From Omnitrophica WOR_2 bacterium RIFCSPHIGHO2_02_FULL_50_17 (lineage in GTDB: Bacteria; Omnitrophota; Gorgyraeia; Zapsychrales; Zapsychraceae): 52,614 nucleotides of DNA. The translations under genes and the position numbers were made by a program. How positions within the stretch are numbered: the stretch's first letter is position 1; every line of letters begins with the position of its first letter. Where the stretch lies: assembly GCA_001805645.1 (NCBI GenBank), contig MHGQ01000041.1, positions 1 through 52,614 of the forward strand, written 5' to 3'. The notes beneath the pieces are model-generated. The model had not been told where the DNA came from and did no database searches. It saw only the letters and a program-made list of their open reading frames with translations. Below are positions 8,843-17,145 of the stretch, piece after piece.

Positions 8843-8950
8843 GTCTCGTTGATTTTTATACAATTTATAATATATTGATTTATAATGGGTTACAATCGTG
8901 TAAAAAAATTTATTTTTACTCCGGGGAATTATTGATTTTTAATTAAAAAT

Positions 8951-8980
8951 GATTGACTATTTGTCAATCTGTGGTACACT
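8951..8980 (+). promoter_or_regulatory. Promoter of XRE regulator overlapped by palindromic operator
   Basis: GATTGAC-TATTT-GTCAATC perfect inverted repeat (8951-8969) containing TTGACT, 16 bp from TGgTACACT. Confidence 0.6.
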
Positions 8981-9006
8981 TCATTTACCACACGAAGGGG
9001 GAGAAA

Positions 9007-9558
9007 ATGTACATCGGAAAACGACTCAGAGAAATCCGCCAGGCCCAGGGCATGAGCCTCACCACCCTGGCCGAAAAAAGCGGCGTCCAGATCGCGACTT
9101 TAAGCCGGATGGAAAACTTAAAAATGACCGGGACGCTGGAATCACACATGAACATCGCCAAGGCACTGGGAGTGGACGTCACCCAGCTCTACACCGCTAT
9201 TATTAGAGAAGAGAGCAAAGCCGAGGCCGCCACTACGAAGTCCGCTTCGGATGTCTTTATCCACAGCGACAAGTCCTCCTACGAGATCCTCACCTCCAAT
9301 GTCTTGGGCAAGCGCATGATGCCGATTCTTTTAAAGATCGAACCGGACGGCCAAACCAATACCGAGCAAAACCGCCCCGGCTCGGAGAAGTTCATTTTCG
9401 TCCTGGAAGGAAAAATCGAGGCCCGCGTCGGCGATAAGACCTATCCCCTGGCCAAAGCCAACAGCCTGTATTTCGACGCCTCGCTGGAGCACTATTTCGT
9501 GAATACGGGGAAATCTACCGCGCGGATGATCTGCGTGGGGACGCCGGTGGCATTGTAA
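9007..9558 (+). CDS. XRE-family HTH transcriptional regulator with cupin domain
   Basis: IGKRLREIRQAQGMSLTTLAEKSGV...LSRMEN HTH; C-terminal cupin (EKFIFVLEGKI...SLYFDASLEHYFVN); ATG at 9007 after GGGGGAG. Confidence 0.93.
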   Translation: MYIGKRLREIRQAQGMSLTTLAEKSGVQIATLSRMENLKMTGTLESHMNIAKALGVDVTQLYTAIIREESKAEAATTKSASDVFIHSDKSSYEILTSNVLGKRMMPILLKIEPDGQTNTEQNRPGSEKFIFVLEGKIEARVGDKTYPLAKANSLYFDASLEHYFVNTGKSTARMICVGTPVAL

Positions 9559-9560
9559 AA

Positions 9561-9610
9561 GTTGAAAAATGTTACAAGAGGTTGGAAAATGTTGGAAAAA
9601 GTTACAGCAA
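9561..9610. repeat. Decamer array, upstream arm of element B
   Basis: gttgaaaaat gttacaagag gttggaaaat gttggaaaaa gttacagcaa, starting 2 bp after the XRE stop. Confidence 0.85.
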
Positions 9611-10005
9611 TGAATACTCGTCCTTATGAAAAGCTGAAATTCTACAAGGATATATGTGAAATCAGAAGGTTTATTCACAAAATAACAAGCCGTTTTGAGA
9701 AATCACATCTTCGCCTGGTTTCCCAGATGCGAGATGCGGCAAGGTCAGCCAAACAGAATATTAGGGAAGGCTATACCAAAGGCACCTTGGGAGAATTTAA
9801 GCATAGCATTAAGATAAGCCAAGGCTCCCTCGAAGAGCTTTGCGGTGACATGCAAGACTGCCATGATGACCGATTAATATCAAGTGAAGAATTTGAGGCC
9901 TTCAAAACTTTACACAGAAGCGCAAGCTATATGAGCACACGATATTTAAAGGCCATGTCCCAAAAAACGCAAATAAACAACTGGAAAGTCCCGTTCAAGC
10001 AGTAA
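9610..10005 (+). CDS. Four helix bundle protein, copy B (divergent)
   Basis: YEKLKFY...LVSQMRDAARSAKQNIREGY...ISQGSLEEL; start could be 9589. Confidence 0.88.
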   Translation: MNTRPYEKLKFYKDICEIRRFIHKITSRFEKSHLRLVSQMRDAARSAKQNIREGYTKGTLGEFKHSIKISQGSLEELCGDMQDCHDDRLISSEEFEAFKTLHRSASYMSTRYLKAMSQKTQINNWKVPFKQ

Positions 10006-10080
10006 ATGCAACTTATGGCAACCTGTAAAACCTTTAACATCGTTCAACCTATTTCAACCTCTTTAAACCTCTTTCAACCT
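10006..10080. repeat. Decamer array, downstream (inverted) arm of element B
   Basis: ...atcgttcaac ctatttcaac ctctttaaac ctctttcaac ct. Confidence 0.85.
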
Positions 10081-10098
10081 TAAGTCACGGAGGGTATT

Positions 10099-10467
10099 AT
10101 GTCTACACCTAAGATTCTCATCGTCGACGACGAAGAAGGCGTGCGCGAGTCCCTCAAACTCATCCTGGGCGACTATTATGACATCATCCTGACTGACAGC
10201 GGCGAGCAGGCCTTGCGCTGTCTGGAGAAAGACCCCGCAATCGGCCTTGTCCTTTTGGATATCAAAATGCCCAAGGTCAACGGGCTGGAGGTGCTCAAAG
10301 CGGTCAAGGCCAAACGCCATGCCCTCAGCGTGGTTATGGTGACCGGCTACAGATCGGTTGAGACCGCCGCGGAGGCCACGCGCCTGGGTGCCTCGGGGTA
10401 TATCGTAAAGCCCTTTAAGTCGGACGAGATTCTGGCCACCGTCCAGCGCTGCCTTGCTTCAATATAG
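10099..10467 (+). CDS. Single-domain response regulator (REC)
   Basis: ILIVDDE...LVLLDIKMP...MVTG...YIVKPF. Confidence 0.95.
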   Translation: MSTPKILIVDDEEGVRESLKLILGDYYDIILTDSGEQALRCLEKDPAIGLVLLDIKMPKVNGLEVLKAVKAKRHALSVVMVTGYRSVETAAEATRLGASGYIVKPFKSDEILATVQRCLASI

Positions 10468-10501
10468 GGACAACCTTGAAAAGCTATAAAAAACAAAAAA
10501 C

Positions 10502-10615
10502 TGGCGGGAAACCCTGGAGATCATGCGCGATCCGGAGATGATGAAAGGCATCCAGGAAGGCCAGCAGGACATCAAAGCCGACCGGCTGTGTTCGAAAAAA
10601 AAGTGTTTGGAAAAG
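10502..10615 (+). pseudogene. Remnant of Phd/YefM-type antitoxin C-terminus
   Basis: Frame reads WRETLEIMRDPEMMKGIQEGQQDIKADRL then VFG after a shift in an A8 run; no N-terminal domain or toxin. Confidence 0.5.
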
Positions 10616-11976
10616 CACAGAAAAGACCCTAAAGGTCTTGACGCATTGAACAAAGAAAACCTCCTCGCGCTGCTTCCGCGCTGAAGACGGCGGGGGAAAA
10701 ATTTGAAATAATGCGATGCCATACCTAACCCTATTATCCGTATTTGCCCTTTTAACCGCAATAACATGTTTCTTGCTCGGCCTACTCATCGGCATATGCG
10801 GCAAAACCAAATTGCACAGAGTTTGGTCCTTATTTCAATTTTCTGTTGCGGGGTGGGGAGTTCTTGCGTTCTTATAGACTATATCCAAAGACCCAAATAC
10901 TGCTTACGATCTTTGGCGGCTCTCTCATCTCTTTGGAGTTTATATTTCCATATTTTTCTTTCACTCGACGTGTCTTTTCTGCAATTTATCCTATCCAAAA
11001 CTTATTAAAGCATCTTATCTTTATGGTGTGTTAAACAACATAGCGCACACCGCAAATAATGGTCACTTGCTTTTTAAAGAAGAACATGTCAAATATCTTT
11101 TTGATTCCGTATATTATCCTCAAGCCCATGCTTTCAATCTCCTGTTAGCATTAGCACCGTGGATCTTCTTGACAATATTCAGCATGTACCACCTGTATCG
11201 TTATTCAAAAATACACGGAGATAACACGGGCCACCAAGCAAAATTATGGCTTATTATATCAATTTTAGGTTACACGGGTGGTTCCTCAACTTTTTTACCA
11301 ATGCTTGGCATTAACCTTTACCCAAACGCCCTTCTCTTGCTCCCCAGCTACGCGCTTATGCAGACTTATGCTATTTTCAAATACCAATTATTCAACTTAA
11401 GAATTGTTCTAGAAAAAAGCATCATCTATTCTGTGTTGATCGCTATTATATCTATTGCCTATTTAGCCATAGTGCTCACGGCAGAAAAAGTACTGCAAAG
11501 CATACTTGGGTATCAATCTGCTTCCATTAGCCTTTTCGCGGCCTTTGCAATCGGTATCATGGTCATTCCTTTACGCAATAGAATCCAAGCATTATTAGAT
11601 CGGTCTTTGTTTAAAGGAACGCAGCCGGAAATCGCAGCAGAGAATGCATTACTGCGCCAGGAGATCGCGCAGTCGGAAAAGTATAAAACGCTCTCCACGC
11701 TGGCCACGGGCATCGCCCACGAGGTGAAAAATCCGCTCACGGCCATCAAGACATTTTGCGAATACCTGCCCCAGAAGCTCGACGACAAGGAATTTCTCCT
11801 TAAGTTCTCAAGGCTTGTCGGCCGTGAAGTTGACCGCATCGACGGGATGGTCCATGAGCTTCTGGATTACGGGAAACCCGCTCCTCTGTCGCTTAAGGAA
11901 ACAGACATCCAAAGGCTGATCACAGATACGCTGGATATTTTAAGCAATAAATTTCTGGCTCACCATATTACCGTTA

Positions 11977-12011
11977 CCTGCACCCTAGACCCTAAACCCT
12001 GCACCCTAAAA
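11977..12011. repeat. Single-arm heptamer array inside kinase CDS
   Basis: cctgcac cctagac cctaaac cctgcac cctaaaa, translated as CTLDPKPCTLK. Confidence 0.75.
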
Positions 12012-12103
12012 ATAGATCCCACCCGTATCAAACAGGCGCTTCTGAATCTCTTCTTAAACGCCATTGACGCCATGCCGGGGGGAGGGAAATTGACTGTGAC
12101 GAC

Positions 12104-12179
12104 GAGGATTAAAGGAATAAAGGATTATAGGAATAGTGACAACCCCTCTAATCCTCTACCCCTTTATTCCTCTAATCCT
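12104..12179. repeat. Inverted octamer-array hairpin inserted in frame in the HATPase domain
   Basis: aggattaa aggaataa aggattat aggaatag / ccctctaa tcctctac ccctttat tcctctaa tcct; adds RIKGIKDYRNSDNPSNPLPLYSSNP. Confidence 0.85.
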
Positions 12180-12387
12180 GTATTTGAAATCTCCATCCAA
12201 GACACCGGCTGCGGCATCGCCGCCAAAGACCTGCCTCATATCTTCGATCCCTTCTTCACCAAAACCGACCACGGGACGGGCCTGGGGCTGACAATCACCC
12301 GGGGAATCATCGAACAGCACGGCGGGAAGGTGAGTATCCGCAGTCAAGTAGGGGTGGGGACGGAGGTGAGGCTGGAATTCCCGTACA

Positions 12388-12416
12388 GTGACTAGTCGCT
12401 GGTCACTAGGGACTAG
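12388..12416. repeat. Heptamer array, upstream arm of element C
   Basis: gtgacta gtcgctg gtcacta gggacta; contains the kinase stop codon. Confidence 0.8.
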
Positions 12417-12420
12417 AAAA

Positions 12421-12774
12421 ATGGAAATAAAAGATTATAAAGACTTGAAAATCTGGCAAAAAGGAATCGAGCTGGTTAACAAAACTTATTCGATTACCGA
12501 AAAATTCCCTAATAGCGAACTGTATGGTTTAACAAGCCAGATGCGAAGAGCGGCGATTTCGATTCCTTCCAATATCGCTGAAGGATTCGTACGCAAACAT
12601 ACAAAAGAGTACTTCCATTTCTTAACGATATCGTTGGGATCTTGTGCAGAATTGGACACGCAGGTTATTATCGCTGTGGAAAGAAAATATATCAGCAAAG
12701 ACTTATGTGATAATTTTACGAATGAATTATATTACGAAATGCGGATGATAAGCAGCTTACTTAACAAACTATAA
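12421..12774 (+). CDS. Four helix bundle protein, copy C
   Basis: YKDLKIWQKG...FPNSELYGLTSQMRRAAISIPSNIAEG...SLGSCAELDTQ. Confidence 0.93.
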   Translation: MEIKDYKDLKIWQKGIELVNKTYSITEKFPNSELYGLTSQMRRAAISIPSNIAEGFVRKHTKEYFHFLTISLGSCAELDTQVIIAVERKYISKDLCDNFTNELYYEMRMISSLLNKL

Positions 12775-12786
12775 ATATCTTTTTAC

Positions 12787-12814
12787 TAGCGACCAGCCCC
12801 CAGCGACTAGCGAC
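12787..12814. repeat. Heptamer array, downstream (inverted) arm of element C
   Basis: tagcgac cagcccc cagcgac tagcgac. Confidence 0.8.
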
Positions 12815-12817
12815 TGT

Positions 12818-14023
12818 TCAAATCTTCCCCGCCTCATACAGCTCCACCAGGGCATCGACAACGGCCGGATTAAACTGCGTGCCCGTACAGCGCTTAATCT
12901 CAGCCATCGCGGCTTCTTTGCTTAAGCCTTTACGATAGGGACGGTCCGAGGTCATGGCATCAAAGGCGTCGGCAACCGCAATAATGGCCGCCGCCCAAGG
13001 GATATCCTCGCCTTTGAGGCCCTCGGGATAGCCTTTGCCGTCAAAATGCTCATGATGGTATTTGATGCCCTCAAGACATTCCCGCGGTAAGCGAAGGGGG
13101 CCGACCATCTCGCTGCCGCGCACGGTATGCTGTTTCATGACAGCGTATTCCTCGTCGGTCAGTTTACCCTGTTTATTGAGGATGACTTCAGGAATCGCTA
13201 TTTTGCCGATATCGTGCAGAAGAGCGGCGATATAGATACTTTCAAAAAAACTTTCCTCGAACCTCGCCGATCCGCCGGCCCCGCCAACAGCGGGGGTGGC
13301 GGCCATCTGCCGGGCGATCGCCACCGAATATTCCGTGACACGGCCCGTGTGCCCGTGCGTGTAGGCGTCTTTGGCTTCAATCGTCGAGCCTAAGACCTCG
13401 ATTGTCTGCAGGAACAACTGGCGGTTACGCTCCGCCTCGCGCTTTAAACCTTCAAAGAGCTGGGCGTTGCGGATCGCCATCGCCGCGTCCGAGGCGAGCG
13501 CGGCGAAAAAATCCAGCTCCGGCTGTTCAAATTTCGTTCCGTCGTGCTTTTCCCCCAAAAGCAGAATCGCCATCAGCTTATGGCGATAATAGGCCGGCAC
13601 GCAGGCAGCGGTATTGAGCATCTGCATCTGTTCGTCCACCCTGTAAAGAAGCTCTTTGACGGCCTTGCCGTTTCCGTTATGGATGATGCTCTCGCGCCAG
13701 ACGAGGCGGTTGATGTCGTCGGAGACAATCGCGTTGCGGTCTAAAGTCAATGGCCTAAACTCCCTCTGGCTGAAAATTCTAATCAGAGGGCTCTCATGGC
13801 TGAACCGCGTAAAGCCGGGGGGCACTTTCATGCCTATTTCCCCGCGCGAGATATTCAGGACATAAATATCCTTCTTGGGCTCATAAAGGATCATGGCGGC
13901 ATGCTTGATATGGAGCTTGCGGACAATCATGCGGACAATGAGCTTGATCAAGAGCCTCGGGTCATGAATCATGATCATGCCCTTGCTGGCGGTCTCGAGT
14001 TCTTTTTTATAGTCAATCTTCAT
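12818..14023 (-). CDS. GAF + HD-GYP domain cyclic-dinucleotide phosphodiesterase
   Basis: YTHGHTGRV, LLHDIGK, HHEHFDGKGYPEGL, VADAFDAMTSDRPYR; N-terminal GAF. Confidence 0.92.
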   Translation of the reverse strand: MKIDYKKELETASKGMIMIHDPRLLIKLIVRMIVRKLHIKHAAMILYEPKKDIYVLNISRGEIGMKVPPGFTRFSHESPLIRIFSQREFRPLTLDRNAIVSDDINRLVWRESIIHNGNGKAVKELLYRVDEQMQMLNTAACVPAYYRHKLMAILLLGEKHDGTKFEQPELDFFAALASDAAMAIRNAQLFEGLKREAERNRQLFLQTIEVLGSTIEAKDAYTHGHTGRVTEYSVAIARQMAATPAVGGAGGSARFEESFFESIYIAALLHDIGKIAIPEVILNKQGKLTDEEYAVMKQHTVRGSEMVGPLRLPRECLEGIKYHHEHFDGKGYPEGLKGEDIPWAAAIIAVADAFDAMTSDRPYRKGLSKEAAMAEIKRCTGTQFNPAVVDALVELYEAGKI

Positions 14024-14024
14024 T

Positions 14025-14155
14025 GAAAAAGGTTGGAAGACGTTGCAAGAGGTTGGAAAATGTTAGAAGAGGTTACAGTCCTTAACCTGTTCCTAACCTC
14101 TTAACCTTTCGAAACCTTTTCTAACCTCTTGTAACCTTTTCTAACTTTTAACTAA
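14025..14155. repeat. 'Empty' inverted decamer-array hairpin of the same family as element B, with no ORF
   Basis: gttggaagac gttgcaagag gttggaaaat gttagaagag gttacag / ...ctttcgaaac cttttctaac ctcttgtaac cttttctaac; shares caagaggttggaaaatgtt with 9575-9593. Confidence 0.88.
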
Positions 14156-14511
14156 CGCTTTAACTCTGCAAGTACAATCTTCTCCAGCTCCTCCAACACC
14201 AGCGGCTTGTGGATATATCCTCTCACGCCGTAAGCATTAGCCATGTTCATCGTCTCTTCGTCCTCGACGCCGGTCACCATAATGACTTTGGTGTCGCTGC
14301 CCTTGTCGCGAAGCTCTTTAAGGACATCCACACCGTTCATCTGCTCCATGCGCACGTCCAGAAGGACCAGATCCGGCTTTTCCTTGTCGATAATCTCCAG
14401 CGCCTCCTGCCCGCCGCTGGCGGTAAAGACGTCAATCTGACGTTTGGCGAAAAACCGCCGGGCGAACTCCCGGATGTCCATTTCGTCGTCGACAATGAGT
14501 AATTTGGGCAT
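14152..14511 (-). CDS. Single-domain response regulator (REC)
   Basis: MPKLLIVDDE...PDLVLLDVRM...VIMVTG...YIHKPL. Confidence 0.95.
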   Translation of the reverse strand: MPKLLIVDDEMDIREFARRFFAKRQIDVFTASGGQEALEIIDKEKPDLVLLDVRMEQMNGVDVLKELRDKGSDTKVIMVTGVEDEETMNMANAYGVRGYIHKPLVLEELEKIVLAELKR

Positions 14512-14528
14512 GATTGTACTCCCTTTCA

Positions 14529-14561
14529 AGACTATAGACTATAGACGATAGACCATAGACT
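14529..14561. repeat. Heptamer array, downstream arm of element D
   Basis: agactat agactat agacgat agaccat agact. Confidence 0.85.
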
Positions 14562-14566
14562 TGGGT

Positions 14567-14926
14567 TTACAATTCCCGCTTTACGGCTTCAATGAGACCA
14601 AACAAAGTCTTTGCGACCTCTTGCTTTTGTTCCTCGATTCTGCCAAATAATTCGTCTCTCAAATAACCCAATTTATTGGCTAAATGAAGAAGATATTCTG
14701 TTTCAGCGAGCGATGCTCTGGCCACATATAAAAACTGCAAATAATCTTTTTGATGCTGTCTGCTGGCGCCTTCGGCGATATTGGTCGGGACGGACACAAC
14801 TGCCCGGCGAAGCTGAGATGTCAGTCCGTAAAGCTCCTCTTTCGGGAACTGCTGGGTCACTTTGTAAATCTCAACGGCAAAATCATCCGCCAATTGAAAC
14901 GCTTTAATACTCTTGTAATTTCTCAT
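14567..14926 (-). CDS. Four helix bundle protein, copy D
   Basis: MRNYKSIKAFQLA...FPKEELYGLTSQLRRAVVSVPTNIAEG...ARASLAETEYLL. Confidence 0.93.
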   Translation of the reverse strand: MRNYKSIKAFQLADDFAVEIYKVTQQFPKEELYGLTSQLRRAVVSVPTNIAEGASRQHQKDYLQFLYVARASLAETEYLLHLANKLGYLRDELFGRIEEQKQEVAKTLFGLIEAVKREL

Positions 14927-14949
14927 CACTGTCTTCTCTATCAACCACC

Positions 14950-14977
14950 GGTCTATGGTCTATTGTCTATGGTCTAT
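14950..14977. repeat. Heptamer array, upstream (inverted) arm of element D
   Basis: ggtctat ggtctat tgtctat ggtctat; contains the stop codon of the upstream kinase. Confidence 0.85.
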
Positions 14978-17145
14978 GTCGCTATAGGTAAAACCAGCCT
15001 CGTCCGCGAGCCTTCTTTGTATTCCGACGTAAATTCCACCTTCCCCTGGTGGTTTTCCTCAATGATTTTCCTCATCACATACAACCCCAGACCCGTTCCC
15101 TTTTTGCTGGAAAGTTTCGTCGTAAAAAACGGCGTAAAGAGCTTATTAATATCCTGCGGCCTGACGCCGATGCCGTTGTCGCTAAGGAGAATCTCCAGGT
15201 TCTGGCCGTTGGAATGAGCCGTGATTTCCAGCCTTCCTTTGTAACCAGGCTCCTTGAATTCCTCCTGCCTCTCCATCATGGCATCATAGGAGTTGTCGAT
15301 GATATTGAAAAAGACCTCCTGAAGCTGCGTAAAATTTCCGTGAACCGGCGGGACCGCGTGGTCGAAATTCCGGACGATGTCGATGCGGTTGAGTTTAATC
15401 TTAAACTGGACCATCTCCAGCGAGGCATCCAGGAGCTTGTTGAGGTCAACGGCGCCAAAGCCCTCCTCGGGCTTGCGGGAATATTTCAACAGCCCCTCGA
15501 CGATCTCGCCGCCTCGTTTGACGTTGTCCTGAATCCTGTCCAGCGAATGCTCGATTTCTTCCAGAAGTTCGCGCGTCTCCGGCGGCAACGGGTCTTTTTT
15601 TTTGAGCCGGATGGTGTCCACCGCGTCCCCGGCGATAAAGCCCATCGCGTGCAGGCGGTTGTTGATCTGGTGCGAGAGTCCGTCAGCCATGGTCCCGATG
15701 GTGGCCATCTTCTCGGCCTTGATAAGCTGTTCGTGCGTCTTTTTCATCTCCTCGTAAAACTGAGCGTTTTCGATGGCCAATGCCGCCTGATTGGCGAGAA
15801 TGGAGAACACAATCAAGTCATCGTGGCTGTATAACTTCCCGGATTTTTTCTTTCCCAGCGCGATAAAGGCAATCAGACGCTCATCCATGAAGCTCGGGAC
15901 AATCAACGCCGCCTGCAGGTCTTCCATGACCTTTCCAATTTCGGCTAAAGCCTCGTCCTTAAAATCCACACTGCGCTGTTTGACCTCATCGTAAACCAAA
16001 GGCTCGCGGTGTTTCTGCAGATGCTGAATCAAAACGGCGTCGCCGGCAATGACACCACTCCTTCGGTCGCCTCCTATGCCCTTGGAGGCCTTCAAGACGA
16101 ACTGACTGGAAGATTCATGGAAAAGATAAATGATGCTGTGCTCGATTTTGACCGTCCGCGTCACGATATGGACGATCAGATTCAGCAGTTTTCCAAGCTC
16201 CTTGACCCTTCCCATCCCGAGTGATGCCCGGCGCAGGGCCGCCTGATAGCGCCTCTGCTCCTGCAAGAGCCGGTCTTCTGCCTTGCGCTGGATGAACAAA
16301 TAGATTGACGGCCCGACGGTGGCCAGGACAGTCGAGCTGATCAACGGCGCCAGCCACCACATCTCTCCCATTAAACTTTTCAACTGCTCCCGCCAGCCGA
16401 AGGCAAGGACAAAAGGAATGCCAAGAACAAATGAATAAATAACAAAAAAAATACTAGTACGTGTTACCGCGACACTAACATCCATTAACCTATACTTTAT
16501 AATCGCATAAGCAAATATTATAGGTAATTGAACTAAAAAAATAAACCCTAGAGGGAAAAGAGATATTCCATAGTTTGGAATAAAATCCACACTGCCAAAA
16601 GACGCTATAATAGATCCCAAGAGAACATATTTAGTTTTAGATAACTGGATAAGGTTTCTTTCTTTTAGAAGATTCAGGACAAGATCGACAAATCCAGCTG
16701 TAAAAAGTCCGATAAAAAAACATAAAAACAGTGGATGCATTTTTATGTTTGCCTGAGGGTAATAACCCCAAGAATAATGATAAAGATCGGCTATCAATAA
16801 GGGGGTAAAATATAAAAAATAAAGAAAGATTATTCCACCCACCCAGAAAAGACTCTGTAATAATCTAATTCTTTGTTTATTTAAAAATGTAGCTATAAAT
16901 TCGTAGAATGTTACCGGGATGAATATAATCCCTGCAAAACCCATCTTAAAAGCAATTAGCATATGGCTAATATCACTTATTCTGCTCGCCAAAGCATAAC
17001 TTATAAGCCAAATAAAAATAGCTATCGTTAACTTCAGAAATGCCCTATTTATTGATGAATTCTTATTCTTGACAAATGTGAGGATTCCAAATCCCAGAAC
17101 AAAAAAGGCAGCGAACACTCGAAGGGCATAAATAAGAATAGCCAT
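14974..17145 (-). CDS. 7TM-sensor + GAF histidine kinase
   Basis: About 9 hydrophobic N-terminal helices, GAF, LSHQINNRL H-box, NIIDNSYDAM, DNGIG, GTGLGL. Confidence 0.92.
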   Translation of the reverse strand: MAILIYALRVFAAFFVLGFGILTFVKNKNSSINRAFLKLTIAIFIWLISYALASRISDISHMLIAFKMGFAGIIFIPVTFYEFIATFLNKQRIRLLQSLFWVGGIIFLYFLYFTPLLIADLYHYSWGYYPQANIKMHPLFLCFFIGLFTAGFVDLVLNLLKERNLIQLSKTKYVLLGSIIASFGSVDFIPNYGISLFPLGFIFLVQLPIIFAYAIIKYRLMDVSVAVTRTSIFFVIYSFVLGIPFVLAFGWREQLKSLMGEMWWLAPLISSTVLATVGPSIYLFIQRKAEDRLLQEQRRYQAALRRASLGMGRVKELGKLLNLIVHIVTRTVKIEHSIIYLFHESSSQFVLKASKGIGGDRRSGVIAGDAVLIQHLQKHREPLVYDEVKQRSVDFKDEALAEIGKVMEDLQAALIVPSFMDERLIAFIALGKKKSGKLYSHDDLIVFSILANQAALAIENAQFYEEMKKTHEQLIKAEKMATIGTMADGLSHQINNRLHAMGFIAGDAVDTIRLKKKDPLPPETRELLEEIEHSLDRIQDNVKRGGEIVEGLLKYSRKPEEGFGAVDLNKLLDASLEMVQFKIKLNRIDIVRNFDHAVPPVHGNFTQLQEVFFNIIDNSYDAMMERQEEFKEPGYKGRLEITAHSNGQNLEILLSDNGIGVRPQDINKLFTPFFTTKLSSKKGTGLGLYVMRKIIEENHQGKVEFTSEYKEGSRTRLVLPIAT

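Follow-up and report, generated by a model that had tools for sequence, protein, structure and literature searches.

A gene-less decamer hairpin between a REC gene and an HD-GYP gene, probably a non-autonomous relative of hairpin-armed PF05635 cassettes

The REC/HD-GYP junction

The window (the whole stretch of DNA that was analysed, 52,614 nt) comes from Omnitrophica WOR_2 bacterium RIFCSPHIGHO2_02_FULL_50_17, whose genome (1.92 Mb, 92.8% complete) is labelled G000. On the minus strand of the window, a REC (response-regulator receiver) gene is followed by an HD-GYP-type gene. The gap between these two cistrons is taken up by an imperfect hairpin, here called H, with five 10-nt units in each arm. 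The features discussed are:

9558 to 9607, plus strand: left arm of element B, a gene-bearing decamer cassette
9610 to 10005, plus strand: IVP-B, a PF05635/TIGR02436 four-helix-bundle gene in the loop of element B (profile matches)
10032 to 10081, plus strand: right arm of element B
12818 to 14023, minus strand: HD-GYP-type gene, the downstream cistron (HD_5, 124.8 bits)
14024 to 14151, unstranded: H, a gene-less decamer hairpin that fills the whole 128-nt REC/HD-GYP intergenic space
14028 to 14075, plus strand: left arm of H, five GTT-type 10-nt units with an exact 19-mer at 14046-14064
14072 to 14078, plus strand: GTTACAG, the inner end of the left arm of H, a left-arm end typical of the decamer family
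14102 to 14149, plus strand: right arm of H, AAC-type 10-nt units, 77% complementary to the left arm
14152 to 14529, minus strand: REC gene, the upstream cistron (PF00072, 103 bits)
14529 to 14977, minus strand: heptamer ATAGAC cassette at the kinase/REC junction with a PF05635 gene (14567-14944), of a family distinct from the decamer one

The HD-GYP gene starts at the ATG at 14023, and its orthologues keep the N-terminus MKIDYKKELE. Within the gap (14024-14151) are two mutually inverted arrays with 10-nt spacing, each represented by four register-shifted copies (families D1 and D2). Each arm is 48 nt long and 26 nt separate the two. The right arm lies 2 nt from the REC stop, while the left arm, and with it the stem, lies 3-4 nt from the HD-GYP ATG. 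An earlier note, made from the sequence alone, had described the whole gap as a decamer hairpin of the element B family with its arms joined and no gene between them. Both parts of this description hold, the limits given there (14025-14155) being off by a few bases.

As RNA, the plus strand of H folds into an almost continuous stem with a loop of 8 nt and no ORF between the arms (-53.1 kcal/mol, z -8.45, 0 of 200 shuffles equal). The minus strand, which is the transcribed one, folds at -39.1 kcal/mol (z -2.54, 4 of 200 shuffles equal). No direct repeat or target-site duplication flanking H is visible in the sequence. A scan of positions 13800-14400 against Rfam gave no rRNA match and no credible match of any kind, the best being mir-266 (22.2 bits against a gathering score of 80, E 0.096). 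Likewise, a terminator scan found no site in H, and no promoter-like site was found in 12700-15100. There is no Shine-Dalgarno sequence at the HD-GYP start in G000 or in its relatives, which suggests translational coupling to REC.

Likeness of H to element B

The gene within element B, IVP-B, scores 62.7 bits against PF05635 (cut-off 33.8) and 53.1 against TIGR02436 (cut-off 24), and its nearest solved relative is 2GSC (E 3e-7). Two of the observations that had tied H to element B are indeed correct. An exact 19-mer occurs twice in the window, at 9575-9593 in the left arm of B and at 14046-14064 in H, with a chance expectation of 0.00 (100 shuffles); the right arm holds a third match on the opposite strand, differing at 2 positions. 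In addition, GTTACAG closes the left arms of both elements, and these arms are 84% identical over 50 nt when aligned in register. Since this value is only modestly above the 62-77% obtained when the arms are shifted by 10 or 20 nt, the likeness comes in part from the shared unit.

The right arms match poorly (66% over 44 nt). The right arm of B is closer to the reverse complement of the left arm of H (76%) than to the right arm of H, and thus arm identity alone is ambiguous on the orientation of H. When full lengths are compared, the joined arms of B are the closest to H among six comparators (0.70 versus 0.63-0.66). H therefore has the inverted 10-nt GTT/AAC arms of the decamer-armed PF05635 cassettes, their arm collinearity, and their GTT(A/T/G)CAG inner end, while the PF05635 gene is missing from its loop, as expected of a gene-less form. 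A CAG arm end is present in B and in 6 of 13 cassettes of IVP-B orthologues.

A search of public collections with the 19-mer returned 19 metagenome and 5 genome stretches. Decamer arrays are present in only 2 of these 24 (L162 and L165), both at a junction of the type found at C26 in G000 (see below) and not at that of H; the remaining matches look like chance.

Periodic hairpins elsewhere in the genome

G000 contains nine PF05635 matches, four of them in the window. Four of the nine loci pass the inverted-repeat threshold as gene-in-hairpin cassettes, four more have shorter inverted arrays of 7-9-nt units (judged by eye), and the ninth is a copy at C66. The unit sequence differs from cassette to cassette. 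Besides these, the genome holds about ten gene-less hairpins with periodic arms, several of which share their unit with a cassette of G000:

C36:4699-4856: ATAGAC gene-less hairpin, unit matching the cassette at 14529-14977
C7:2373-2460: GGACGA gene-less hairpin, unit matching the C37 cassette
C64:54095-54240: TGTCAAAT gene-less hairpin, unit matching the C64 cassette
H, C26:44116-44270 and C49:58401-58500: decamer gene-less hairpins, unit matching element B

A genome-wide count of decamer hairpins with and without an ORF, as the earlier note had proposed, was made by scanning for inverted GTT/AAC arrays with 10-nt spacing; the reversed genome, used as a control, gave 0 loci. G000 has exactly four decamer inverted loci (B, H, C26:44127, and C49:58401), 1 with a gene and 3 without. 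Together, the 19-mer, the likeness of the arms, and these four loci support the proposal that H connects the repeat hairpins that stand alone with the cassettes that carry a four-helix-bundle gene.

One hairpin lies within a gene. An inverted array of octamers (AGGATTAA type) at 12105-12179 interrupts the HATPase_c domain of a histidine kinase (gene at 11028-12395) without breaking the reading frame, and adds about 20 amino acids (the RIKGIKDYRNSDNPSNPLPLYSSNP region) that are missing from all 8 aligned orthologues. A full cassette could not have sat within the kinase gene; thus, hairpins can arise or insert without a gene.

Decamer arrays and IVP-B across the Omnitrophota

Of 301 Omnitrophota genomes sampled, 16 have an IVP-B orthologue (E at most 1e-12), and these are scattered patchily. 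In 13 orthologues the identity is 53% or more; 11 of these show period 10 in the upstream arm and 12 have at least three GTTDC cores, while neither feature is present in any of three distant relatives. The arm unit therefore goes with the gene subfamily. When four GTTR cores spaced 10 nt apart are strictly required, a pattern for which the reversed control gives about ten matches in all, 38 of the 301 genomes have a match: 10 of the 16 with an IVP-B orthologue versus 28 of the 285 without one, related genomes being non-independent samples.

The most extensive set is that of genome G222, in which 59 pattern matches fall into 23 loci with a single IVP-B gene, or about 22 gene-less loci to 1 gene-bearing. 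Of the 22 non-cassette loci, 20 were examined; all lack an ORF and all lie between co-directional genes. Thirteen full-length gene-less copies align end to end with the arms of the cassette from which the ORF has been removed, at identities (0.73-0.81) that fall within the range seen among the gene-less copies themselves (0.70-0.86). The ORF of the G222 cassette is placed exactly after GGTTACA(G/A).

The C26 hairpin of G000 has an orthologue in G004, where the flanking genes are 84% and 73% identical, so this hairpin is older than the genus split and gene-less hairpins can outlast it. No IVP-B was found in G004 by ortholog search, though the hairpin is kept there. The same hairpin recurs in two metagenome contigs, whose left arm has a 27-nt run in common with B. 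Arrays and genes are also found apart: G291, with 11 pattern matches, lacks PF05635 genes altogether, while in G077, G105, G259, and G265, despite many decamer arrays, none of 25 PF05635 loci has decamer arms. In G004, at about 1830-2030 of C71 (L078), a decamer hairpin is nested in the loop of a heptamer (CGAAATA-type) hairpin.

The junction in relatives

Comparing the REC/HD-GYP junction in close relatives had been suggested as a check, and empty, filled, and hairpin-bearing forms were all found. Orthologous HD-GYP loci number 30, including that of G000 (tblastn, 49-100% protein identity), and REC lies upstream in 25. The gap in these 25 is:

3-13 nt, 7 loci (L004, L006, L007, L008, L017, L019, L020)
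28-33 nt, 3 loci (L039, L043, L046)
49-106 nt without a periodic hairpin, 7 loci (L011, L013, L014, L015, L042, L044, L047)
a gene-less periodic hairpin, 3 loci (decamer in G000, heptamer in G008, octamer in G040)
a PF05635 gene or its remnant, 2 loci (complete in G022, with CCAGATA heptamer arms; internally deleted in G003, with one arm)
a GxxExxY / PDDEXK_3 gene with arms of roughly 10-nt units, 2 loci (L018 in G027, L041 in G030)
octamer arrays broken by a stretch of withheld bases, 1 locus (G026)

Three of the other five HD-GYP loci reach a contig end (G004, G011, G016) and two have different upstream sequence. In the closest relative, G004 (81%), a heptamer GTAAGTC hairpin occupies the place of H for 163 nt up to the contig end. 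The corresponding contig ends hold the terminal part of a PF05635 gene together with an arm in G011 and tandem repeats in G016. At L013, an ordinary, non-periodic hairpin is followed by a T-run. Metagenome contigs add two further forms: in run X4 the HD-GYP start runs into a G004-type heptamer, and in a contig of run X2 it is joined to an ATAGAC arm, as in G003. Among the contigs of four runs over 8900-15300, none joins cleanly across a deleted H, but they break inside H and so say nothing on its absence. Joints from 14023/14025 to 14180 do occur, though with undetermined letters in the middle and short flanks (30-32), and were set aside.

The decamer element is present at this junction in none of the 24 relatives with REC upstream; thus, H is a lineage-specific insertion and not a terminator. 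It inserted in the G000 lineage only; in seven relatives the two genes are just 3-13 nt apart, and the ancestral junction was probably tight too. For unrelated elements that share this hairpin design, the junction is a hot spot.

Several of these relatives deserve description in their own right. The gene at the G003 junction (L003) is 87.5% identical to the C-terminal part of the protein encoded at 14567-14944. It has lost an internal stretch, roughly residues 15-77, and retains just the right arm, of the ATAGAC type; its intact counterpart in G000 lies one junction further upstream. In G027 (L018) and G030 (L041), the cargo of the GxxExxY / PDDEXK_3 nuclease family is located between CACAGAT/CGCAGAT units of roughly 10 nt. 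The HD-GYP orthologue of G036 is followed immediately by a convergent IVP-B orthologue (57% identity) that has decamer arms (C35:25936-27530).

The junction of element B, compared in 24 loci, is similar. It measures 7-22 nt in 9 of them, and holds PF05635 cassettes of other unit families in 3 loci, in addition to B itself. Gene-less sequence of 158-248 nt is present in 4, with inverted repeat arrays in G011 and G038. In G027 (L138, cupin/REC), a 557-nt cassette has arms like those of the L018 GxxExxY cassette and a putative GxxExxY cargo.

Strand preference and orientation

Folding of the plus strand of H is 14 kcal/mol more favourable than that of the transcribed strand. The GTTACAG end likewise lies on the plus strand. 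In the cassettes, it is the sense strand of the gene that tends to fold better: 14 of 17 IVP-B-type cassettes (101 versus 56 G-U pairs) and 4 of 7 other cassettes of G000. The sense strand likewise folds better in 5 of 6 gene-less hairpins at co-directional junctions of G000, H being the exception, but in only 13 of 20 G222 copies. The preference is thus a trend, drawn from cases that are not independent, and in the C49 hairpin the GTTTCAA end and the better-folding strand disagree. Another marker is the AATTAA unit: of the 18 G222 copies that can be scored, 15 have it in the arm that is 3' with respect to transcription; inverted copies are therefore in the minority, yet they exist.

H is probably inverted relative to its operon. 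Because its transcribed strand folds much worse than the opposite one, H was not shaped by selection on the REC/HD-GYP mRNA, and an inverted position fits a recent arrival.

RNase III

No RNase III gene was found in G000, which is 92.8% complete, with the profiles PF14622, PF00636, and TIGR02191. Among 41 genomes of the order (G000 and 40 relatives), 3 have a match, clear and above cut-off in G022 and G036 and weak in G038; in the other 38 none was found. G222, G157, and G197 are likewise without an RNase III gene, while G198 and G054 have one. Excision of H by RNase III in the manner of an rRNA intervening sequence is doubtful, since no such gene was found in G000, and was dropped as the main mechanism.

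Comparison with known systems

Intervening sequences (IVSs) of 23S rRNA occur as short forms without an ORF, the Salmonella type, and as forms with an S23p/PF05635 ORF in Coxiella and Leptospira. One report regards them as selfish and horizontally acquired, with an ORF that tends to decay, and describes their excision by RNase III, as in Coxiella (PMC4990558). Like an IVS, H is an insert with an inverted-repeat stem whose family has forms with and without a gene, and that gene belongs to PF05635. Unlike an IVS, H lies between two protein genes and not in a 23S/16S rRNA helix, and its arms are tandem 10-nt arrays. Furthermore, an IVS is cut by RNase III, for which no gene was found in G000.

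H also resembles the REPIN/RAYT systems, in which, according to two reports, short palindromic hairpins are dispersed between genes and a single-copy gene is flanked by the same repeats (PMC3116915, PMC3337134). Many gene-less copies per gene are seen here too (3:1 in G000, about 22:1 in G222), as is vertical persistence, in the C26 hairpin shared with G004. However, the protein associated with the decamer family is a four-helix bundle of about 130 residues (PF05635/TIGR02436) rather than a Y1 (HUH) transposase, the Y1_Tnp genes of G000 being located elsewhere. The copy number is also low (four in G000), and the arms are tandem arrays.

Integron cassettes, like the elements described here, are small promoterless genes tied to an imperfect palindrome (attC in integrons), with arrays that turn over fast at conserved positions; unlike attC, the hairpin of the present elements encloses its gene on both sides. 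The Correia repeat-enclosed elements of Neisseria have target duplications. As described in a report on them, they are, like H, gene-less inverted-repeat elements at gene junctions; they are co-transcribed, and their hairpin can affect neighbouring genes (PMC2649163). The same report states that they bind RNase III and IHF and can create promoters (PMC2649163), whereas no promoter-like site was found at H. Nor does H qualify as a MITE, as no direct repeat flanks it and the parent gene is not a known transposase, or as an intrinsic terminator, as it has no such site and its U-run is paired. In short, H behaves as a gene-less IVS or a REPIN would, yet it lacks the defining features of either.

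Origin of H

H probably belongs, as a non-autonomous form without a gene, to a family of hairpin-armed cassettes akin to the 23S rRNA IVSs. Members of this family have arms built from repeated 10-nt units around a GTT(A/G) core, and B is the only gene-bearing copy in G000. Most likely, H arrived or was copied as a gene-less hairpin, in the way that REPINs and MITEs spread, and it may persist as a near-neutral passenger. The earlier note had offered three readings, a non-autonomous derivative, a post-loss scar, and a pre-insertion target. The first is the best supported, given the collinear copies of G222, gene-less in all but one case, and the in-frame hairpin of the kinase; the second is possible; and the third has poor support. 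No target-site duplication is visible and we know of no mobilising enzyme for H, both of which count against the insertion of a gene-less form. Moreover, the decaying PF05635 gene at the G003 junction shows that loss in place does happen, again contrary to a gene-less arrival.

Once in the mRNA, the arms of H would pair and the insert would be looped out, with the REC stop and the HD-GYP start at the two sides of the helix base. Because H spans from the REC stop to just before the HD-GYP ATG, the stem would set stop and start side by side, and a ribosome finishing REC might open the stem base, so that the old translational coupling would be kept. This arrangement could be why the insert is tolerated, although the coupling is something that we purely infer.

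The main rival holds that H is a scar made in place: a complete B-like cassette whose gene ran on the plus strand, antisense to the operon, would have lost that gene through deletion of the loop, leaving the arms joined. This is possible but rather unlikely. It agrees with the junction in relatives, where G003 has an internally deleted PF05635 gene with a right arm and G022 a complete cassette, and with the reported decay of the Coxiella IVS ORF (PMC4990558). The better-folding strand and the GTTACAG end also imply a plus orientation, in which such a gene would be without the operon promoter and free to decay. However, H has no gene remnant and folds with a loop of only 8 nt, gene-less copies far outnumber gene-bearing ones both in G000 and in G222, and a hairpin inside a coding region, such as that of the kinase, cannot be the scar of a cassette. 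A quite improbable alternative takes the hairpin itself as primary, a landing pad whose loop is entered and left by small genes (PF05635, GxxExxY), with H either unoccupied or vacated. Filled and gene-less forms in G222 do differ only by the ORF, set exactly after GGTTACA(G/A); a decamer hairpin lies inside the loop of a heptamer hairpin in G004; five genomes with many decamer arrays have no decamer-armed PF05635 gene; and two unrelated cargo families share one layout. On the other hand, IVP-B orthologues across the phylum keep GTTAC-type 10-nt arms, which argues that gene and arms are inherited together. In addition, the filled junctions of relatives have arms of different families, and the empty ones, of 3-13 nt, have no hairpin, which also speaks against the pre-insertion target of the earlier note.

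Compatible with any of these origins, but unlikely, is the idea that H serves as a putative operator, bound in trans by protein B through its 10-nt units and modulating HD-GYP. The arms of IVP-B orthologues keep the GTTAC core while the spacer letters vary, consistent with a constraint beyond base pairing, and strict decamer arrays are enriched in genomes with IVP-B (10 of 16, against 28 of 285 others), with the reservation that these genomes are non-independent. Yet G004 retains the orthologous C26 hairpin where no IVP-B was found, G291 has its 11 array matches without PF05635, and the 25 PF05635 loci of G077, G105, G259, and G265 include none with decamer arms. That H is just a terminator or attenuator with no tie to the cassettes, the case that the earlier note had named as its refutation, is very improbable indeed. 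There is a run of five Ts after the stem on the transcribed strand, and L013 has an ordinary hairpin with a T-run at this same junction. However, the T-run of H is paired inside the stem, the scan finds no terminator there, the HD-GYP start is 3 nt from the stem, and no promoter-like site was found in 12700-15100. Homology to B and to the other decamer loci would be unexpected of a terminator, and relatives have the junction both without a hairpin and filled with a gene.

Significance

PF05635/TIGR02436 is a very large family whose function is unknown, and it is known mainly from rRNA IVSs and from the Avd proteins of diversity-generating retroelements. A literature search found no description of PF05635 hairpin cassettes outside rRNA. 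The present analysis indicates that the hairpin arms of PF05635 cassettes also exist as gene-less copies, some of them inherited across genera, and that these copies turn over at fixed operon junctions, with one even located within a kinase domain. How the elements move and what the protein does can be studied in a concrete system that comprises two junctions, some 30 genomes, and several families of elements. For annotators, long periodic hairpins between cistrons in these genomes are to be read as insertions and not as regulatory signals conserved with the operon.

A wider proposal can be made only tentatively. It may be the repeat hairpins, and not the genes, that replicate, as REPIN-like miniatures whose partner is a non-enzymatic four-helix-bundle protein recognising the 7-10-nt core of its own hairpin family. 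In Omnitrophota without RNase III, such hairpins would have invaded tight junctions within operons and even, in frame, coding sequence, and the IVSs of rRNA would be the special case that was noticed first.

Other small repeats in the genome

Several repeats of other kinds are present in G000. A Y1_Tnp (IS200/RAYT-like) gene at C66:12527-12760 lies within C66:12289-13040 and has inverted GCACCACCT...AGGTGGTGC palindromes on both sides; the palindromes recur at C62:21241-21283 and C66:16943-17541. The arrangement resembles a classical REP/RAYT-like system distinct from the periodic hairpins. Four loci, C7:12929-13016, C15:6820-6907, C28:8079-8166, and C67:3353-3440, share one and the same 25-nt inverted repeat (ATTCCCCTCCCTCGACGGGAGGGGA and its partner, separated by 38 nt). 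Sequence similar to it adjoins the truncated C66 PF05635 match on the upstream side, so the repeat is another small dispersed element. Finally, C59:3201-3409 is a near-perfect inverted repeat of 104 nt with a 1-nt gap, which may be a fold-back artefact of assembly.
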